From the IMG/VR virus record IMGVR_UViG_2703718820_000014: 18,596 bases of DNA; one strand, given 5' to 3'. Each line of letters opens with the position of its first letter. The first letter of the stretch is position 1. Position numbers and translations under genes: made by a program. The stretch is from a virus. Lineage: Duplodnaviria > Heunggongvirae > Uroviricota > Caudoviricetes. Of this stretch, positions 6,395 through 18,596 are shown in pieces. Under the pieces are notes generated by a model. The model ran no database searches. It saw only the letters and a list, made by a program, of their open reading frames with translations, and had not been told where the DNA came from.

Positions 6395-6739
6395 TCACTC
6401 TCCTTCTATGCGAATACCAGCAGCAGTCAGTGCGGCATTGACCTCATCAGCGTAGTAGTACGTTAATCCACTTGATGATTTAGCCAGCTTGAATGGTTCT
6501 GGTAACTTCACTATGCGGGACTCCTGCTCGTCGATACGCTGTTTTGCTTCCTCCAGTTCATCCAGCAAATCAGCGATAATATCCACTTCACGATGACGGA
6601 TTTCACGCTTAAACGCAGCCAAAGCTGCATCACAATCCTGCTCAGCGTTTGGACTGTCTGGTTTCTCCTGATACCACGCCAGCATCGACCGATAGTTTTG
6701 TGCTGCCTCACGCAATGCCTGATAGTCAATCTTGCTCAC
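6395..6739 (-). CDS. Ead/Ea22-like protein (short paralog)
   Basis: GTG start at 6739 preceded by AGGAGG with a 6-nt spacer. The N-terminus MSKIDYQALREAAQ and a coiled-coil segment resemble the neighbouring paralog. Confidence 0.6.
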   Translation of the reverse strand: MSKIDYQALREAAQNYRSMLAWYQEKPDSPNAEQDCDAALAAFKREIRHREVDIIADLLDELEEAKQRIDEQESRIVKLPEPFKLAKSSSGLTYYYADEVNAALTAAGIRIEGE

Positions 6740-7051: not shown

Positions 7052-7702
7052 TCATGACTGAACTCCTTTGCGAAGCTGGGCAGCAAAGTCAACTAACCAC
7101 TCAGTCATTTCAACCTTCCCTATCAGGTCTGAACCAGGGTGCATACAGCAATCACTCTGCGCCGCTTTGAAATCCTTATACTCATATTCTTGGGCCACCA
7201 GATTTTTTGCAGCTTCTATAGCAGCATCCACCCCCAGCGCCCGCACTTCAGACAGGAAAGCATCGGTGGCTGGCATATTTCCTGTTGCCTTCATGGCCTC
7301 CAAAATAACCAGAACGCCATCTCTCCCAACCTCCTCGCAGATAACCTCGGTGTTGTCGCCAACAACATCGCAGAATGCCTGAACTGCTTTACGAGCAAGT
7401 GCATTCTCCGCCGCCAGCGCCACAAGATTAGCTTCCAGCTCTGCAATACGTTTGCTTTGGGCTTCCCGTTCATCCAGCAGTGCCTGTACTACTTCAGGGT
7501 TGAAAGCTGCAATAAATTCTGCGTTGTTCTCTGCATTTTTCTGGTCATCAAAGCCAGGCCATTTGATAATGTCTCCGCAACGTTCATCCCCCGGCGTATG
7601 CACCGCATATGTATCAGTGCCCGGCGAAATGAATGCGACCCATTCGCCCTGGGTTGCCAGTTTTGCTATCTCACGTAGCGTCTGATAATTAATTTTTCTC
7701 AC
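7052..7702 (-). CDS. Ead/Ea22-like protein (long paralog)
   Basis: GTG start at 7702 within the same 18-bp RBS-start block as the short paralog. N-terminus MRKINYQTLREIAK and coiled-coil FNPEVVQALLDEREAQSKRIAELEANL. Confidence 0.6.
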   Translation of the reverse strand: MRKINYQTLREIAKLATQGEWVAFISPGTDTYAVHTPGDERCGDIIKWPGFDDQKNAENNAEFIAAFNPEVVQALLDEREAQSKRIAELEANLVALAAENALARKAVQAFCDVVGDNTEVICEEVGRDGVLVILEAMKATGNMPATDAFLSEVRALGVDAAIEAAKNLVAQEYEYKDFKAAQSDCCMHPGSDLIGKVEMTEWLVDFAAQLRKGVQS

Positions 7703-7994
7703 TGGTTGCCTCCTGGAAAATAACCGCATGTCCCAGTTTCTCCGCCAGTGCCAGTTCTGCCTTAGCGCCTGCCGACCGCTGCCAGCCTTTCAGCATGTAA
7801 ATCGCATCCACGCAGCGTATCATCGCCATGCAAATATCCATGTAGTGTGGCTGTGTCAGTCCGTCCGGAAGTACTGCCGGGTTTAAAACGGTATGCCCTT
7901 CCCGTTTCAGTGCTTCTTCCGCCCTGTGAAACGCCTCACGGTTGAAATTTTCATATCCCGTCATCGGACCGGCGATATAAATTCTCACCCTCAC
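7689..7994 (-). CDS. DUF4406 / nucleoside 2-deoxyribosyltransferase-like protein
   Basis: 101 aa; the N-terminal [12 protein letters not shown] motif is typical of the DUF4406/NDT-like fold. GTG at 7994 overlaps the upstream stop (GTGA) with AGGAGGG upstream. Confidence 0.7.
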   Translation of the reverse strand: MRVRIYIAGPMTGYENFNREAFHRAEEALKREGHTVLNPAVLPDGLTQPHYMDICMAMIRCVDAIYMLKGWQRSAGAKAELALAEKLGHAVIFQEATSEKN

Positions 7995-11910: not shown

Positions 11911-12270
11911 TTATAATCCAACCAGGCTTTCCAGGGGGATACCAAATTGATTATGAAGACGGCGAATCATTGGTAACGTAAGGCTTCTGGTACCATTCAA
12001 CACCTCATAAACCCGATTTTTTTTCCCAATTGCGGGTTCCAAATCTTTCACAGTCAGCCCCTGCTGTTCCATGCGAAATCTTATAGCTTCAATTGGGGAT
12101 GGTGGCTCAATGGGATAATGTTTTTTTTCATATTCCTCTATTAGCAAACACATCACCTCAAAAAAATCCCCCTCAGGCGTGTCAATTTCGGGCTCATTGT
12201 CGAACATGGGTTCAACAGCACGCAACGCGGCTTCATAATCTTGCTCTGTACGAATAGGTTTGATGTTCAT
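11911..12270 (-). CDS. higA: HigA-like antitoxin (HTH)
   Basis: 119 aa; motifs IKPIRTEQDYEAAL and GLTVKDLEPAIGKKNRVYEVLNGTRSLTLPMIRRL are typical of HigA. It begins 2 nt after the HigB-like stop. Confidence 0.75.
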   Translation of the reverse strand: MNIKPIRTEQDYEAALRAVEPMFDNEPEIDTPEGDFFEVMCLLIEEYEKKHYPIEPPSPIEAIRFRMEQQGLTVKDLEPAIGKKNRVYEVLNGTRSLTLPMIRRLHNQFGIPLESLVGL

Positions 12271-12272
12271 GC

Positions 12273-12575
12273 TTACTCCAGTTCGATGGTATCAGCATCA
12301 ATAGCATCGTATTCCTTGTGGTTTCCGATGAATTTAACAAATACCCATCCTCGCTGATACGCAATTGCAACAATTAAACGGTAATGATTACCTTTTATGT
12401 TGAATACCACGCGCCGGTTTTTCAATATACTGGCCGTTCGGTATTGTGCCTTAATGTCTGCTGGGCTTTTCCAGTCAGCTTTTGCCGCCTCATCCACCCA
12501 TGCCCTTAGCGGTTGTTCTGCATCAGGATTCTCCGCCCAAAAATCCCTGAGTGTTTTAACTGAGATAATCTTCAT
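12273..12575 (-). CDS. higB: HigB-like toxin (RelE/ParE superfamily)
   Basis: 100 aa from ATG 12575; VFNIKGNHYRLIVAIAY...FIGNHKEYD matches the HigB pattern. Toxin-first gene order as in higBA. Confidence 0.7.
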   Translation of the reverse strand: MKIISVKTLRDFWAENPDAEQPLRAWVDEAAKADWKSPADIKAQYRTASILKNRRVVFNIKGNHYRLIVAIAYQRGWVFVKFIGNHKEYDAIDADTIELE

Positions 12576-12581
12576 AACTGT

Positions 12582-12610
12582 ATAGTAGTCCCATTTTGGG
12601 ACTGATGCAA
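12582..12610 (-). promoter_or_regulatory. Candidate higBA-like promoter with embedded palindromic operator
   Basis: On the - strand: TTGCAT (12610-12605), 17-nt spacer containing the perfect palindrome GTCCCAAAATGGGAC (12588-12602), then TACTAT (12587-12582), ending 6 nt before the ATG. Confidence 0.4.
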
Positions 12611-12620
12611 CAGCTCGCAA

Positions 12621-13002: not shown

Positions 13003-13269
13003 TTAGCACCAGTAAAAACAGGTTGCCACTGGTTAATTTACCCTGAAAAGTCAGGGCACAACAGAAAGCACACGGCGAAGGCGTCTTTTCCTTAGAAGGC
13101 TTGTCGTTAGATTTCTTCGACCGTGTGCTTCCGGTTGTGGCAATCCGCGAAATGGCGCGGCGGTAAATATGGCTGGGGGTTTTTATTTCTTTTCCCCTCA
13201 TTGAGGACACCGGGTTGTCAGGTTGACCATATGCCTGAGTGACAACCCCGCCACAACATCTCCATGTTT

Positions 13270-13329
13270 CAATGGCAGTGGTACCTTTGGCGGCATCAGT
13301 TTATTAGCTTTCTGATGTCCGCCCTTTTT
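13270..13329 (+). ncRNA. dicF: DicF-like small RNA (cell-division inhibitory sRNA of dicB operons); ends approximate
   Basis: Stem ggcggcatcag (13289-13299) pairs with ctgatg-t-ccgcc (13312-13323), followed by T5 (13325-13329). The hairpin and its 3' flank closely resemble the recalled E. coli dicF locus; the 5' part is diverged. Confidence 0.55.
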
Positions 13330-13520
13330 AAAGTGAATTTTGTGATGCGGTGAATGCGGCTAAGCGCACGCGGAACAGTTAAAACCGTAAAGTGGTCTTT
13401 TACGGGGCGTAACGGGCATACTTCTGTATTCCGGCGTTAATTGTTAACTGGTTAACGTCACCTGGAGGCACCAGGCACTGCATCGACAAAGTTCACTTCG
13501 GTGATGAAAGGTAAGAGAAA

Positions 13521-14375
13521 ATGTTGAATGTAGCTATTGAAAACCAGAACGGGTGGAATTATAGTGCACCTGCACCTCATAAAACGGGTGCCGGGCGTGG
13601 AAACCCGATGATGATCAACGCGCATAACCGCGCTCAGGCGGTTTTTTTATGCGTCAAGCACAGCCACATTCAAATTATGGTGGGGCGTGCAGGGCAGCTG
13701 CAAGGCTGGCCGGCTCCGTTGGTCACCGGTATTTCCACCCCTGTACGTCTCACCACCTTTATGGTCGTGGAAAACCTCGGTGGTGAGTTATTTAAACTGA
13801 TCAACGAGGCTGCCATCATGGCTACTACCCTTACCCTTTCTCACCCTGACGTAACCATCGAAAATGGTCGCGCAGTCACCACGTCTGTTGCAGTTGCAGA
13901 GTTCTTCCACAAACTGCATAAAAACGTCATTCAAAAAATTGAAGCTCTGGAATGTTCCGACGAATTCACTGAGCTTAATTTTCAGCCCAGCGAATACACC
14001 GACACAACCGGGCGCAAACTCCCTATGTACCAAATCACCAAAAACGGCTTCGTTTTCCTGGTGATGGGCTTCACCGGCAAAAAAGCCGCTGCATTTAAAG
14101 AAGCCTACATCGCTGAGTTCGATCGCATGGAGAAAGAACTGCGCCAGAATAACGCCCCGTCTCCCGACAAAATGATTCACGGGGACGGACGTACCCTGGT
14201 TATCCGTCTCGACGAACACGGCAATATCAAATTCACTGAAACCGTTCCGGACGGCGCAATGGTCTGCACCCTGGATACCTTCCAGTTTTATCTGGAGAAA
14301 CAAGGCTGGACTCTTGTAAACCGGAGCGCAATTAAAAATATGACTGTGGAGCAATTACTAAAAATTCATTGTTGA
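13521..14375 (+). CDS. Rha-family phage regulatory protein (Rha domain starts near Met at 13818; 99 upstream codons are open in frame)
   Basis: The region MATTLTLSHPDVTIENGRAVTTSVAVAEFFHKLHKNVIQKIEAL...FVFLVMGFTGKKAAAFKEAYIAEFDRME is typical of the Rha N-terminal domain. ATG 13521 has a modest SD; ATG 13818 has GAGG 8 nt upstream. Confidence 0.7.
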   Translation: MLNVAIENQNGWNYSAPAPHKTGAGRGNPMMINAHNRAQAVFLCVKHSHIQIMVGRAGQLQGWPAPLVTGISTPVRLTTFMVVENLGGELFKLINEAAIMATTLTLSHPDVTIENGRAVTTSVAVAEFFHKLHKNVIQKIEALECSDEFTELNFQPSEYTDTTGRKLPMYQITKNGFVFLVMGFTGKKAAAFKEAYIAEFDRMEKELRQNNAPSPDKMIHGDGRTLVIRLDEHGNIKFTETVPDGAMVCTLDTFQFYLEKQGWTLVNRSAIKNMTVEQLLKIHC

Positions 14376-14385
14376 GGACGCGATA

Positions 14386-14574
14386 ATGGAAACGTTATTA
14401 CCAAACGTTAATACGTCTGAAGGGTGTTTTGATATTGGTGTTCTGCTCAGTAACCGGGAGTTTACTGAAGATGCCATTAAGATGAGAAAATATGAGCCTT
14501 ATCTTCTCAATGATAATTCCATACTCTCCAGAATTGCCCTTCTTAAACTTGGTATTTTCGGAGGGCAGCAGTGA
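14386..14574 (+). CDS. dicB: DicB-like cell division inhibitor
   Basis: 62 aa; the N-terminus METLLPNVNTSEGCFDIGV...FTEDAI matches the recalled Qin DicB sequence. ATG lies 10 nt after the Rha stop. Confidence 0.7.
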   Translation: METLLPNVNTSEGCFDIGVLLSNREFTEDAIKMRKYEPYLLNDNSILSRIALLKLGIFGGQQ

Positions 14575-14759
14575 CTTCTGCATTTGCACTGGTGATGACG
14601 GTTTTTCTTATAACGGGTGAGCCACAGAATGTGATTACCGGAATTTATGCCAGTAAAGAATCATGCCTCCGTGCAAGAGACGAGCAAAAAATTTCTGGCG
14701 AATGCCTCCCGTTAAAAAAAGTATCGCTGTACCTGAATAACGAAATACCGGCTGGATAA
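14571..14759 (+). CDS. ydfD: YdfD-like small membrane (lysis-type) protein
   Basis: GTG at 14571 overlaps the dicB-like stop (GTGA) with GGAGGG upstream. Hydrophobic N-terminal segment MTSAFALVMTVFLITG and a C-terminal NNEIPAG resembling recalled YdfD. Confidence 0.55.
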   Translation: MTSAFALVMTVFLITGEPQNVITGIYASKESCLRARDEQKISGECLPLKKVSLYLNNEIPAG

Positions 14760-14851
14760 TCCACCAGCCATATTAACGCCATACCCGTTGATTAAGCATG
14801 CCAGCAATGGCAGGGGTTCGTACAACCTTAAAATAGTTATGAGGTTTATCC

Positions 14852-17290
14852 ATGAGCACTGATAAAGAAGAATTTTCGCTATATTGCGAAGCAAAAAATG
14901 ACAAGGTCAGAAAACGCCTTGGGATTAAAGGAGGTTTTTACTGGACTACAGCAAAAAAATTATCTGTTGCCATCTCACGGTGCGTTGTTGCAATGGACGA
15001 GGCAGGCTACGACGCTGATGATTTCAAAAAACCTGTCCGCGTCCATTTCCCCGTTGTGAATGACCTTCCACCGGAAGGCGTGTTTGATACCGAATTCTGC
15101 AACCGCTATGAAAAAGGCGGGGAAGATGGCATCACAATGATATTTATAGCGCCTTCCCCCTCAGTTCAGGACAAACCAGCCAGCACTGACAATACCAACG
15201 TCAATGGCGAAGACATGGCTGAGATTGAGGATAATATGCTCCTGCCGATTTCCGGTCAGGAACTGCCCATTCGCTGGCTTGCGCAACATGGCAGCGAAAA
15301 ACCGGTAACGCACGTTTCACGGGAAGAACTTCAGGCATTACATATCGCACGAGCTGAAGAACTGCCGGCTGTTACTGCCCTGGCTATTTCCCACAACACA
15401 AAGCTGCTCGACCCGCTGGAGATTCGCGACCTTCACAAACTGGTACGCGACACAGACAAAGTTTTCCCTAATCCCGTTAATTCCAGTCTGGGGTTAATGA
15501 CTGCTTTTTTCGAAGCATACCTGGACGCTGACTATACCGATCGAGGTCTGCTGACAAAAGAGTGGATGAAAGGAAATCGTGTTTCTCGCATCACCCGCAC
15601 GGCTTCCGGTGCAAATGCCGGTGGCGGAAATAAAACCGATCGTAATCCTGACTTAGTACACACCCTCGATACTCTGGATGTGGAGGCTGCAGCAGCCACA
15701 CTTCCGATGGATTTTAATATTTATGAAATACCCGTGAGCGTTTATCTTCGCGCAAAAGAAATCGTCCTGAAAAAAGAAAGTCCGTTCAGGGAATGGTCCG
15801 CAGCACTTCGCGCAACCCCTGGTATCCTGGACTATTCCCGCGCAGCTATTTTTGCACTTATCCGGAGCGCCCACCCTGAGTTTTATCACTACCCGGGACG
15901 CCTTCAGGGGTATATCAATGCCAACCTGACAGAAACTGATCACGAGAATCCCACAGCTGAAACGCTCATGGCTGCCCGGCATACACCGGAAAAAGATATC
16001 CTGGAAGAAATTAACGGCGGACTGGCTGCTGAGTGCAAAACAGAAGAAGAAAAAAATGATGAAGAAAACCCGCAACCATCTGGCGCAATGGCAGATGAAC
16101 AGGCAACGGCTGAAACAATGGCAGCGGATACAGTTGAACATCATCAGGACCCGCAGCCGCTGGATGACAAGTCACAGGTAAAAGTTACTGCTGAAGAAGT
16201 AAATAAAATTATGGAGGCAGCAGACATCAGTCGACCAGATGCCGACAAATTGCTTGCCGCTTCTCGTGGTGAGTTTGTTGAAGGGATTAGCGACCCGAAT
16301 GATTCGAAATGGGTTAAGGGGATTGAAACCTGCGATTCTGTGAACCAGAACCAGCAAGAAACGGAACAGAACGGTCAGAAAGCGGAACAAAACAGCCCAA
16401 ATGCGTTACAAAACGAGCCAGAAACGAAACAACCTGAACCAGTAGTGCAACAGGAAGAGGAAAAAGTTTGTACCGCATGCAATCAGACTGGTGGTGGTAA
16501 CTGCCCTGATTGTGGCGCAGTGATGGGGGACGCAACCTACCAGGAGACATTCAACGAAGAAAGCCAGGATGAAGCCCGGGAAAAAGATCCGGAGGAAATG
16601 GAAAGTGCCGGACTCCCGAACAAGGAGTGCACCGAAGGCGATCAACATGCCAATGGCAATAATGAAACAGGCGAGACAGCAAATCCCTTAATTAAGGTGA
16701 ACGGTCATCGTGAAATCACATCCACCAGCAGGTTGTGGCACCATCTGATGATTGACCTTGAAACAATGGGCAAAAATCCTGACGCACCAATAGCCTCAAT
16801 AGGCGCTGTATTTTTCGATCCACAAACCGGAGAGCAGGGGCCTGAATTCAGCAAAATAATTGATATGGGTACATGTGGCGGCACTGTAGACATAAGCACC
16901 ATCGAATGGTGGCTTCAACGCTCTGGCGAAGCCCGTGCCGCCATTTTAGCTGATCGAATACCGCTTGATGATGCGCTTTTACAATTACGGGAATTTATAG
17001 ACGAAAACTCCGGTGAGTTTTTTGTTCAGGTCTGGGGAAATGGAGCCAACTTCGACAACGTGATTTTACGCCGTTCATATGAACGGCAGGAGATCCCCTG
17101 CCCGTGGCGTTACACCAATGATCGTGATGTAAGAACGATTGTTGCCCTGGGGCTGGTGATGGATTTCGATGCTCGAAGTGTCATCACATTTGAGGGTGAA
17201 CGCCATAATGCCCTGCACGATGCGCGTTACCAGGCAAAATACGTTTCAGCTATCTGGCAAAAACTGTTCCCGAATCAGGCTGATTTTTAA
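14852..17290 (+). CDS. RecE-N-terminal-like protein with C-terminal DnaQ-like (DEDDh) 3'-5' exonuclease domain
   Basis: 812-aa ORF with GAGGT upstream of ATG 14852. The N-terminal 600 aa contains blocks recalled from Rac RecE ([94 protein letters not shown]). The C-terminal domain has exo motifs [13 protein letters not shown] and HNALHDARY. Confidence 0.85.
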
Positions 17291-17356
17291 TGTTCAACCC
17301 ATATCGCCGCCCACAAGCTATAGTGGCGGCGGTCATGCTGTAAGGCACGTGACCAC

Positions 17357-17608
17357 ATGTACGAATTAACTCTATCGCCAGCAGAAATTCAAGAGATCAC
17401 GAGATACGAACGGTATACAAAACAGCAACAACAGTTAAGGTTGCACGGTATCCCATTTGTACCCGGTCCTAAAAACGAACCAATAGTTCTTCGCAGTGAT
17501 GTCCCGCGCGGACTGACTGCGATACCGAAAGTATCTGAACTGGTTTCTGCTGACCCCGATTTTGAGGCGCTGAACAATGGGAAGACCAAGAAAAAACAAA
17601 AAAGATAA
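17357..17608 (+). CDS. DUF4224-like small protein, putative excisionase / recombination directionality factor
   Basis: 83-aa ORF immediately upstream of, and overlapping by 32 nt, the integrase gene on the same strand; basic C-terminus. Confidence 0.55.
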   Translation: MYELTLSPAEIQEITRYERYTKQQQQLRLHGIPFVPGPKNEPIVLRSDVPRGLTAIPKVSELVSADPDFEALNNGKTKKKQKR

Positions 17609-18596
17609 TGCACTACCGCCACGTGTTAGATCGAATGGTTACAGTTACGTATGGAAACCCGAAGGAAGCACAAAAACTATAGGGCTAGGAAGAGTGCGGG
17701 AAACCAGCATAGCTAAAGTCTGGCAGAATTATGAACTGGAAAAAGCAAAACGCCACAACATAATGACCGTCGCTAAATTATGGCACATGTTTATGGATTC
17801 CCCCGCATTTACAGAACTGGCCCCCAGAACCCAAAAAGATTATCGGCAACATCAGAGGGCGTTACTGGCAGTCTTCGGAAAAGTACTGGCTGATAATGTA
17901 AAAATTGAGCAGGTAAGAATTTTCATGGATAAACGGGGGATTGAGAGCAAGACCCAGGCAAACCATGAACTGGCAAGTCTCAGTCGTGTATACGGGTGGG
18001 GATATGAGCGTGGATATGTGAAGAATAACCCATGCAAAGGAGTCAGGAAATTTACGCTTAAAGCCCGCACTGTTTACATCACAGATGAACAGTATGCGGC
18101 GATATATGCGGAAGCAATACCACAGTTACGCATTGCAATGGAGATATCCTATCTTTGTGCGGCAAGACTCGGTGATGTGCTCGAGCTGAAATGGCAGGAT
18201 ATTATGGATAAAGGAATCTACATTGAGCAAAACAAGACCGGCACCAAACAAATCAAGGAATGGTCTCCACGATTACGAACCGCGATCCAGTTAGCCAGAA
18301 ATGTATCTTCAGGCACATGTGAATATGTGATCAACACAACCAAGGGCGGGAAGGTCATAGCTAAAACGCTAAACAACTGGTGGAACCAGGCTAAACACGC
18401 AGCCGAGAAAAAATCCGGCGTCCCGTTTGGGTGCAATTTCCATGACATAAAAGCCAAAGGAATATCAGATTACGAAGGAAGCAGTCGCGACAAACAGATT
18501 TTCAGTGGACATAAAACAGAAAATCAGGTGTTGATTTATGATCGTAAAACAAAAATCACGCCGACACTGGATTTGCCACTTGTGGTCAGCAAGTAG
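17577..18596 (+). CDS. int: Tyrosine site-specific integrase (lambda Int family)
   Basis: 339 aa. N-terminus MGRPRKNKKDNALPPRVRSNGYSYVWKP and core LELKWQDIMDKGIYIEQNKTGTKQIKEW parallel lambda Int (MGRRRSHERRDLPPNLYIRNNGYY; CEMKWSDIVDGYLYVEQSKTGVKIAIP). Stop codon at 18594-18596. Confidence 0.9.
   Translation: MGRPRKNKKDNALPPRVRSNGYSYVWKPEGSTKTIGLGRVRETSIAKVWQNYELEKAKRHNIMTVAKLWHMFMDSPAFTELAPRTQKDYRQHQRALLAVFGKVLADNVKIEQVRIFMDKRGIESKTQANHELASLSRVYGWGYERGYVKNNPCKGVRKFTLKARTVYITDEQYAAIYAEAIPQLRIAMEISYLCAARLGDVLELKWQDIMDKGIYIEQNKTGTKQIKEWSPRLRTAIQLARNVSSGTCEYVINTTKGGKVIAKTLNNWWNQAKHAAEKKSGVPFGCNFHDIKAKGISDYEGSSRDKQIFSGHKTENQVLIYDRKTKITPTLDLPLVVSK

Follow-up and report, generated by a model that had tools for sequence, protein, structure and literature searches.

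A RecE-type scaffold joined to a predicted DEDDh 3'-5' exonuclease in a lambdoid Escherichia coli prophage

RecE, paired with RecT, is a workhorse of recombineering; what, then, is the use of a prophage gene that keeps the build of RecE, ends in a nuclease of the opposite polarity and has no annealing protein beside it? The question is raised by a gene at 14852..17290 (+) of an 18,596-nucleotide stretch of viral DNA (IMG/VR record IMGVR_UViG_2703718820_000014; hereafter the window), which is the early region of a lambdoid Escherichia coli prophage and in which this gene is the last of the early-left operon before xis and int. Its open reading frame (ORF) starts at an ATG with a GAGG 9 nucleotides 5' of it, and its 812 residues match both PF06630 and PF16473, that is, a RecE-type scaffold followed by a DEDDh exonuclease. 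An initial annotation from the bare sequence had described a RecE-like N-terminal region, a swapped-in DEDDh domain and no annealing gene, and had proposed from this a function other than classical recombineering; the description stands, and the functional inference is only partly supported. We think that the gene on balance probably encodes an early lytic, prophage-borne DNA 3'-5' exonuclease that works from a RecE scaffold beside host recombination; our confidence in the enzymology predicted from its sequence is high, and in the biological role modest.

Scaffold, acidic middle and nuclease cassette

RecE-like sequence makes up the first two-thirds or so of the protein. BLASTP, the alignment check that the initial annotation had proposed, placed residues 50-614 against residues 42-591 of K-12 Rac RecE at 56% identity, confirming the resemblance noted for the first 600 or so residues, and gave no alignment past RecE residue 591; the published RecE nuclease domain, residues 564-866, lies near the end of this homology (PMC11611040). 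Pfam places the enterobacterial exonuclease VIII family, PF06630 (Exonuc_VIII), at residues 51-189 (nucleotides 15002-15418; E=1.2e-34). The NCBIfam RecE equivalog PRK09709, however, covers only profile positions 1-602 of 877 and scores 877.4 bits, below its cutoff of 1269.

Past the homology with RecE the protein changes family. PF16473 (Rv2179c-like) aligns over its full length, profile positions 1-177 of 177, with residues 630-802 (E=9.6e-63; 211.5 bits against a gathering score of 27), and the DEDDh 3'-5' exonuclease domain is placed at residues 630-805 (16739..17266, +). Alignment locates Exo I at IDLET (residues 634-638, with D635 and E637; 16751-16765, +), Exo II at WGNGANFD (residues 728-735, with D735; 17033-17056, +) and Exo III at HNALHD (residues 785-790, with H785 and D790; 17204-17221, +); D635, E637, D735, H785 and D790 align with DexA D7, E9, D119, H186 and D191. 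These five are kept in DexA, in stand-alone forms of the domain and, P0138 excepted, throughout the complete fusion domains aligned (13 of 14; two of the positions in P0138 are occupied by K and A, and three further rows are truncated and gapped there). A profile built from ten fused and stand-alone domains had a single PDB match, T4 DexA (8KEL; E=6e-16), and Rv2179c was not among the PDB matches at E<0.01; because the search retrieves DexA and not Rv2179c, the domain appears closer to DexA, a DNA enzyme. DexA and its E. coli homologue EcD are both DNA 3'-5' exonucleases (PMC12153337).

A PD-(D/E)XK C-terminus, as in RecE, was rejected: the Pfam scan of the protein gave no PF12684, BLASTP against RecE gave no alignment in that part, and a phmmer seed of RecE 592-866, which matched 20 other scaffold proteins and the K-12 Rac control, matched no six-frame ORF of the window. 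The initial annotation's choice of DEDDh over PD-(D/E)XK is therefore upheld by the full-length PF16473 match, the five catalytic residues and the lack of RecE-nuclease similarity. Judged from its sequence, the protein resembles a DexA-type exonuclease in action and RecE in build: with no PD-(D/E)XK domain, a sub-cutoff equivalog score and no recT it falls outside RecE proper, and it falls within the PF16473 DEDDh family.

The whole is a three-part mosaic of an N-terminal module, which may be of RecE type or of YdfE type, an acidic middle with a cysteine motif, and the nuclease cassette. All three modules are under purifying selection (dN/dS, the ratio of nonsynonymous to synonymous substitution rates, 0.12-0.24; dS up to 0.95), with 0.14-0.17 for the DEDDh domain and 0.13-0.24 for the middle. 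The folded N-terminal scaffold, residues 1-390 (14852..16021, +), holds the PF06630 match and is predicted by AlphaFold2, from an alignment of 76-86 rows, at a mean predicted local distance difference test score (pLDDT) of 90.9. Foldseek found no convincing structural relative for it (best E=0.6 in PDB with the full-length model and 0.45 in BFVD) and, against the same two databases, nothing that resembles the fold of Rad52, RecT or RecA-like annealing proteins. Its most conserved blocks are a glycine-rich loop, RT.SG.NAGGG..TDR (15593-15643, residues 248-264), and PGILDYSRA (15824-15859, residues 325-336); no known motif could be assigned to either.

The middle, residues 391-629 (16022..16738, +), is acidic (22.5% D+E, net charge -35) and mostly disordered, with pLDDT mostly below 50. 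The low-complexity linker lies where the initial annotation had put it, at residues 380-603 (nucleotides 15989-16660), with 24.6% D+E and a net charge of -38, and is predicted disordered by AlphaFold. The region is conserved against both Rac RecE and the Qin-type protein described below, including a block of 25 residues. Within it, at 16469..16513 (+), the four-cysteine motif reported earlier is present and reads, in our spacing, CxxC-x7-CxxC (C540-x2-C543-x7-C551-x2-C554); it is a possible zinc knuckle, judging by the residues, and occurs also in Rac RecE (CNACGQTGGDNCPDC) and in only 8 of the 80 long family representatives introduced next.

We searched residues 1-614 against 1.84 billion cluster representatives and obtained 256 clusters at E<=0.001, 80 of whose representatives were at least 430 residues long. 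Among these 80, the C-terminus is DEDDh in 14, RecE-type PD-(D/E)XK in 20-21 and RecT sequence in 2, and in the others no catalytic domain is recognisable; 46 of the 80 carry no nuclease. Those with no recognisable catalytic domain are probably the 'RecE-2' proteins without a nuclease domain that are mentioned in PMC12315714. On a neighbour-joining tree of the scaffold core (block of residues 226-392, 167 columns, without bootstrap) proteins of DEDDh and of PD-(D/E)XK type are intermingled, sister pairs with different nuclease cassettes are evident, and at least 9 switches are required, a count that is rough given the method. The two RecT-bearing proteins are P0124 (703 residues; RecT residues 83-269 after scaffold residue 528) and P0254; both probably arose when deletions in decaying Rac-like prophages joined recE to recT.

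Where the cassette joins the scaffold there is a Chi octamer, at 16722..16729 (-), read in the T-S-T-S codons between the end of the RecE homology (residue 614) and the start of the DEDDh domain (residue 630). All seven fusion alleles fetched, 78-99% identical in DNA, have it: elsewhere it lies at 17520-17527 of the strain 48 locus (L001), at 7874-7881 of L002 and at 6273-6280 of L007-L010. It could be a hotspot of cassette exchange, or could be a mere consequence of selection on the peptide.

Gene company, prevalence and operon context

We found no annealing gene in the window. The exonuclease stop (17290) and xis (17357) are 66 nucleotides apart with no gene between them, as the initial annotation had said, and PHROG scans of 20 window ORFs returned replication, regulatory and unknown families and no RecT, Redbeta/Bet, Erf, Rad52-like or Sak4 protein. 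Six-frame searches of the window and six related loci with seeds for RecT, lambda Bet, P22 Erf, the Rad52-like protein of Salmonella phage g341c, HK620 Sak4, two phage single-stranded DNA-binding proteins (SSBs), Abc2, Gam and lambda Exo likewise found no annealing protein, SSB, Gam, Abc2 or lambda Exo; every positive control in Rac and g341c was recovered. On the strength of these searches we reject the idea that the window hides an annealing protein, SSB, Gam or Abc2. Of the two findings that the earlier reading had named as fatal to itself, placement of the C-terminal domain in PD-(D/E)XK and an adjacent single-strand annealing protein (SSAP) gene, we thus saw neither.

The nuclease cassette also exists on its own. 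Stand-alone homologues are 53-58% identical to residues 630-812, and their starts coincide with the start of the fused domain. In g341c the stand-alone gene lies between the SSB gene and abc2, right after a Rad52-family annealing protein; DnaQ-type nucleases belong to some lambdoid Rec modules, with sporadic copies near int, a Rec module being an annealing protein with or without a nuclease, SSB and anti-RecBCD function (PMC12315714). A scan limited to one genome per species returned 79 loci. The fused form accounts for 26 of them, in about a dozen enterobacterial genera (Escherichia, Klebsiella, Kluyvera, Pluralibacter, Citrobacter, Atlantibacter, Kosakonia, Dryocola, Buttiauxella, Enterobacter, Phytobacter and others); a detectable annealing protein lay within 8 kb in none of the 26, an SSB was never seen near the fused form in the scanned loci, and xis and/or int followed directly in at least 18. 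The stand-alone form accounts for 52, with the order SSAP-SSB-exonuclease in nine and an SSB neighbour in five more. Fused and free forms therefore keep different genetic company. The argument that 3'-5' polarity by itself speaks against a recombination role does not survive this comparison, because the stand-alone kin sit in canonical recombination modules, where a Rad52-like/Erf or Sak4 gene comes first and is followed by SSB, the exonuclease and Abc2.

Nor is the gene the oddity that it had seemed. With a coverage of at least 80% required, its junction and DEDDh segment are found in 3225 of 5426 complete E. coli genomes (59%), at 6695 places and up to 7 times per genome, against 1730 of 5426 (32%) for the PD-(D/E)XK part of Rac recE; at the classical recE loci recT lay under the match in all of the matches listed. 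The DEDDh form is thus commoner in E. coli than the classical RecE nuclease form. Of the 5426 genomes, 1280 have the window-type N-terminus (RecE-type) and 3489 that of the YdfE-type. Many E. coli assemblies encode a protein identical to that of the window (P0001), another of about 100% identity (P0005) is on 430 contigs, and the induced phage vB_EcoS-640R1 carries the gene. Public entries name the protein 'exonuclease' (PGAP) or '3'-5' exoribonuclease' and record both Pfam domains, so that the domains were already correctly annotated.

The YdfE-type allele occupies a familiar place: two inspected loci lie at the K-12 Qin position, and each encodes an intact exonuclease of 823 residues. K-12 ydfE (L011, 4579-5499) corresponds, at 99% identity, to the first 255 residues of such a protein (L009, 4370-6841); IS2 cut the gene and the rest, including the DEDDh domain, was removed, leaving a pseudogene. 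We considered K-12 YdfE as a version of the same N-terminus and rejected this, since it has no similarity to the window protein; it belongs to a sister allele.

The closest complete genome, that of strain 48 (NZ_CP166879.1), is 98% identical over 13200-18596 and has the element integrated beside yccA. There the gene is annotated in two pieces, a 'RecE family' pseudogene fragment at 15791-16156 and an 'exonuclease' at 16505-18088 of L001; the strain 48 copy seems disrupted, and the window copy is intact. A further relative, 82% identical over the whole gene and with dicB and ydfD upstream, comes from a contig (L012, JAGZPX010000007.1) labelled as a metagenome-assembled genome of Veillonella parvula; the contig is almost certainly E. 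coli prophage DNA that was wrongly binned.

From the L001 annotation, and for xis and int also from the ORF list, the neighbours in the window are dicB (14386-14574, +), ydfD/DUF1482 (14571-14759, +), xis (DUF4224; 17357-17608, +) and a tyrosine integrase (17577-18596, +). The order dicB-ydfD-exonuclease-xis-int holds in every inspected locus; ydfA/B/C lie farther upstream, and integrase and attachment site differ from locus to locus. Five loci besides L001 show the dicB-ydfD order upstream. Between ydfD and the exonuclease gene, a stretch that holds a second Chi octamer 84 nucleotides before the ATG (14761..14768, -), there is no convincing promoter of the gene's own and no coding-strand terminator. 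An autonomous moron was rejected on the same stretch: its one promoter-like site is weak (9/12), and such sites are fewer than in shuffled sequences. One report (10.1101/2023.04.14.536235) describes the dicB operon of K-12 as repressed in standard laboratory growth. With its place at the end of a repressed early-left operon and no convincing promoter for it alone, the gene is expected to be silent in the lysogen.

Several other features of the window stand apart from the exonuclease. Rfam places an isrK Hfq-binding small RNA at 13572-13648 (+; 65.7 bits) and a C4 antisense RNA at 13673-13760 (+; 73.5 bits), both inside the 5' part of a Rha/antirepressor ORF (13521-14375); because they lie there, that ORF, which may be governed by a P1/P7-type C4-icd-ant or Gifsy-type isrK switch, probably has its true start later than called. 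ORFs at 12273-12620 (-) and 11911-12270 (-), annotated in a related genome as a HigB-like toxin and a helix-turn-helix antitoxin, match PADLOC PD-Lambda-2_A (E=2e-40) and PD-Lambda-2_B (E=2e-42, over the first 119 of 402 positions), and may form a partial or compact PD-Lambda-2-like defence module by the immunity region. A full-length STnc100 gammaproteobacterial small RNA (605-813, -; 168 bits) lies downstream of a DNA methyltransferase gene (893-1951), and an early-right ORF of 101 residues (7689-7994, -) matches a PHROG family named 'nucleoside 2-deoxyribosyltransferase', is DUF4406 in a related genome and belongs to the class of nucleotide-metabolism genes.

Candidate roles of the fusion

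The reading that we prefer begins with a cassette swap, in which a DexA/Rv2179c-family DEDDh domain would have replaced both the PD-(D/E)XK nuclease and its partner recT. The protein would be made from the early-left transcript after induction, and its DEDDh domain would strip nucleotides from free DNA 3' ends by two-metal catalysis, with D635, E637, D735 and D790 binding metal and H785 acting as general base; the folded scaffold and acidic linker would provide targeting or oligomerisation independent of nuclease polarity. For recombination-dependent growth the phage would use host RecBCD and RecA, a reliance proposed because it is without an annealing protein and rich in Chi. The exonuclease would then be an accessory end-processor or DNA degrader, one that removes 3' tails or flaps or destroys DNA of the host or of competitors, and not a resection enzyme feeding a phage annealing protein.

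The Chi count is consistent with this proposal. The window holds eight, at 151, 3819 and 3871 (+) and at 2066, 2383, 5636, 14761 and 16722 (-), in 18.6 kb for which 0.71 are expected, and none of 200 dinucleotide shuffles reaches 8. Lambdoid phages include a class without a Rec module, abundant in Chi and dependent on host RecBCD (PMC12315714); a Chi-rich window lacking Gam and Abc2 fits that class, by analogy.

Several points weigh against this account. Usually, 3'-5' exonucleases inhibit rather than promote homologous recombination (PMC12315714), and an accessory role that favours recombination is therefore not self-evident. In the full-length AlphaFold model, for which few alignment rows carry the domain, the DEDDh part has a pLDDT of 40-60 and Foldseek found nothing there; the DEDDh fold assignment thus rests on sequence profiles rather than structure comparison. 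PF16473 is named for an exoribonuclease, and an RNA substrate is possible. The orientation of Chi is weakly biased, with five of the eight on the strand that matches the lambda top strand, and seed-based detection may miss a very divergent annealing protein.

A broader proposal, which we regard as unlikely without thinking it far-fetched, is that the RecE-type N-terminus is a new kind of delivery platform, indifferent to the nuclease that it carries, which brings whatever is attached to one target (DNA ends, the replisome or RecBCD), and that cassettes are swapped at the junction Chi. If so, the DEDDh version would give lambdoid phages a second, RecT-independent means of dealing with DNA ends, such as cooperation with Chi-activated RecBCD or protection of ends from it, and fusion to the scaffold would take the place of the SSAP and SSB found with the stand-alone enzyme.

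Somewhat less probable is a role in superinfection exclusion of the HREX kind, in which the DEDDh domain would digest incoming phage DNA of the 5-hydroxymethylcytosine type and the gene would serve the prophage in defence. The sole solved relative of the domain is T4 DexA, and plasmid-borne EcD digests T4 DNA, spares unmodified double-stranded DNA and protects cells against T4 (PMC12153337). Published primers show that EcD starts MIDTET, and its numbering, with Ala78, fits the spacing of the stand-alone lambdoid exonucleases that are 53-58% identical to our domain, and an alanine at the position of DexA D90 seems to be shared (A708, by MAFFT), although the profile alignment puts it one residue off. 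DexA W152, however, which is reported to be needed for cleavage of T4 DNA, corresponds to Thr755 in two HMMER alignments and in MAFFT, and its column varies among the fusions (W/Y/C/T/V/R/H); the equivalent of DexA D169 is Asp771 in the phmmer alignment, with MAFFT placing DexA differently there and the profile alignment ending earlier. The gene should moreover be silent in the lysogen, at the end of a repressed operon by xis and int, and the 600-residue RecE scaffold would be left unexplained. PADLOC-DB 2.0 gave the protein only a generic Cas-associated DEDDh model (E=2.6e-4, 19.7 bits), a weak match on which we rejected membership of a known defence system.

Less probable again is a self-contained recombination nuclease, with annealing or synapsis supplied by the scaffold itself or by a host protein. 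Full-length RecE does outperform its nuclease domain alone in linear-linear recombination, its N-terminal function being described as unknown (PMC11611040); stand-alone homologues sit in SSAP-SSB-exonuclease(-Abc2) modules; T4 DexA takes part in intron-homing repair (PMC12153337); and the fused forms are never accompanied by SSAP or SSB, as though the scaffold had replaced both. Against this, digestion in the 3'-5' direction leaves 5' overhangs, which are not substrates for strand invasion by an annealing protein or RecA, the scaffold does not resemble Rad52, RecT or RecA-like annealing proteins in fold, and 46 of its 80 long representatives carry no nuclease at all.

The initial annotation had also raised the degradation of nucleic acid signals, and a counter-defence exonuclease acting on RNA 3' ends, on DNA made by retrons or reverse transcriptases, or on linear oligonucleotide signals would have the right timing from an early operon and would suit the name of PF16473, taken from the Mycobacterium tuberculosis exoribonuclease Rv2179c. 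We think it improbable: the PDB profile search finds DexA and not Rv2179c, DexA and EcD act on DNA (PMC12153337), exonucleases require a free 3' end, so that cyclic signals are no substrate, and neither our literature searches nor the genomic context gave any support.

That the gene is a relic in decay, left by a cryptic prophage and now without function, is very improbable, for although K-12 ydfE is a pseudogene cut by IS2 and the strain 48 copy is annotated in two pieces, dN/dS is 0.12-0.24 at dS up to 0.95, full-length ORFs occur in thousands of genomes and about a dozen genera, the catalytic residues are conserved and the induced phage vB_EcoS-640R1 carries the gene.

Novelty and comparison with known systems

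The architecture was already annotated and Rec modules were known to contain the nuclease cassette, so the system is not new in kind. What is new is that cassettes have been exchanged repeatedly on a single scaffold, that the fused form is strictly without an annealing partner and predominates over classical RecE in E. coli, that the scaffold has no convincing structural relative, and that a Chi site marks the domain junction in every allele fetched; our literature searches found nothing specific on a RecE-scaffold/DEDDh fusion. The same scaffold on nucleases of opposite polarity, in one case with no annealing partner, offers a direct handle on what the scaffold does, for features common to both fusions, such as localisation, partner binding or end tethering, cannot depend on the chemistry of the nuclease or on RecT. 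Most E. coli genomes have the gene, with up to 7 copies in enterohaemorrhagic E. coli, and prophage induction, recombination between co-resident lambdoid prophages and phage exclusion are candidate roles for it. Should the role prove to be ordinary end trimming, the result would still correct the label 'exodeoxyribonuclease VIII' that such proteins bear at JGI, in some NCBI entries and in ON470612.1.

Set beside Rac RecE, the window protein has in common the PF06630 block, the acidic region and the CxxC-x7-CxxC motif, and each gene stands a few genes ahead of xis and int in the early-left operon; RecE, however, continues into a PF12684 5'-3' nuclease and is followed by recT, whereas the window gene continues into the predicted DEDDh 3'-5' domain and is followed directly by xis. 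The Qin-type protein shares the dicB-ydfD-exonuclease-xis-int operon, the middle region, the junction Chi and the DEDDh domain (about 80% amino acid identity), but this likeness is confined to residues ~440-812 and its first ~245 residues are unrelated to the window protein's N-terminus. Gene 29 of epsilon34/g341c and gp26 of mEp460 (PMC12315714) likewise have a DnaQ-type domain encoded in the early-left operon; they have no scaffold, and often stand in the order SSAP, SSB, exonuclease, Abc2. DexA and EcD belong to the same DEDDh subfamily as the window domain, all five catalytic residues of which align with DexA, but they are single-domain proteins of ~190-227 residues where the window protein has an N-terminal extension of 629, and DexA has extra loops and W152 in place of Thr755. 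Rv2179c, founder of the PF16473 family that the window domain matches, is a stand-alone M. tuberculosis 3'-5' exoribonuclease and a more distant relative than DexA.

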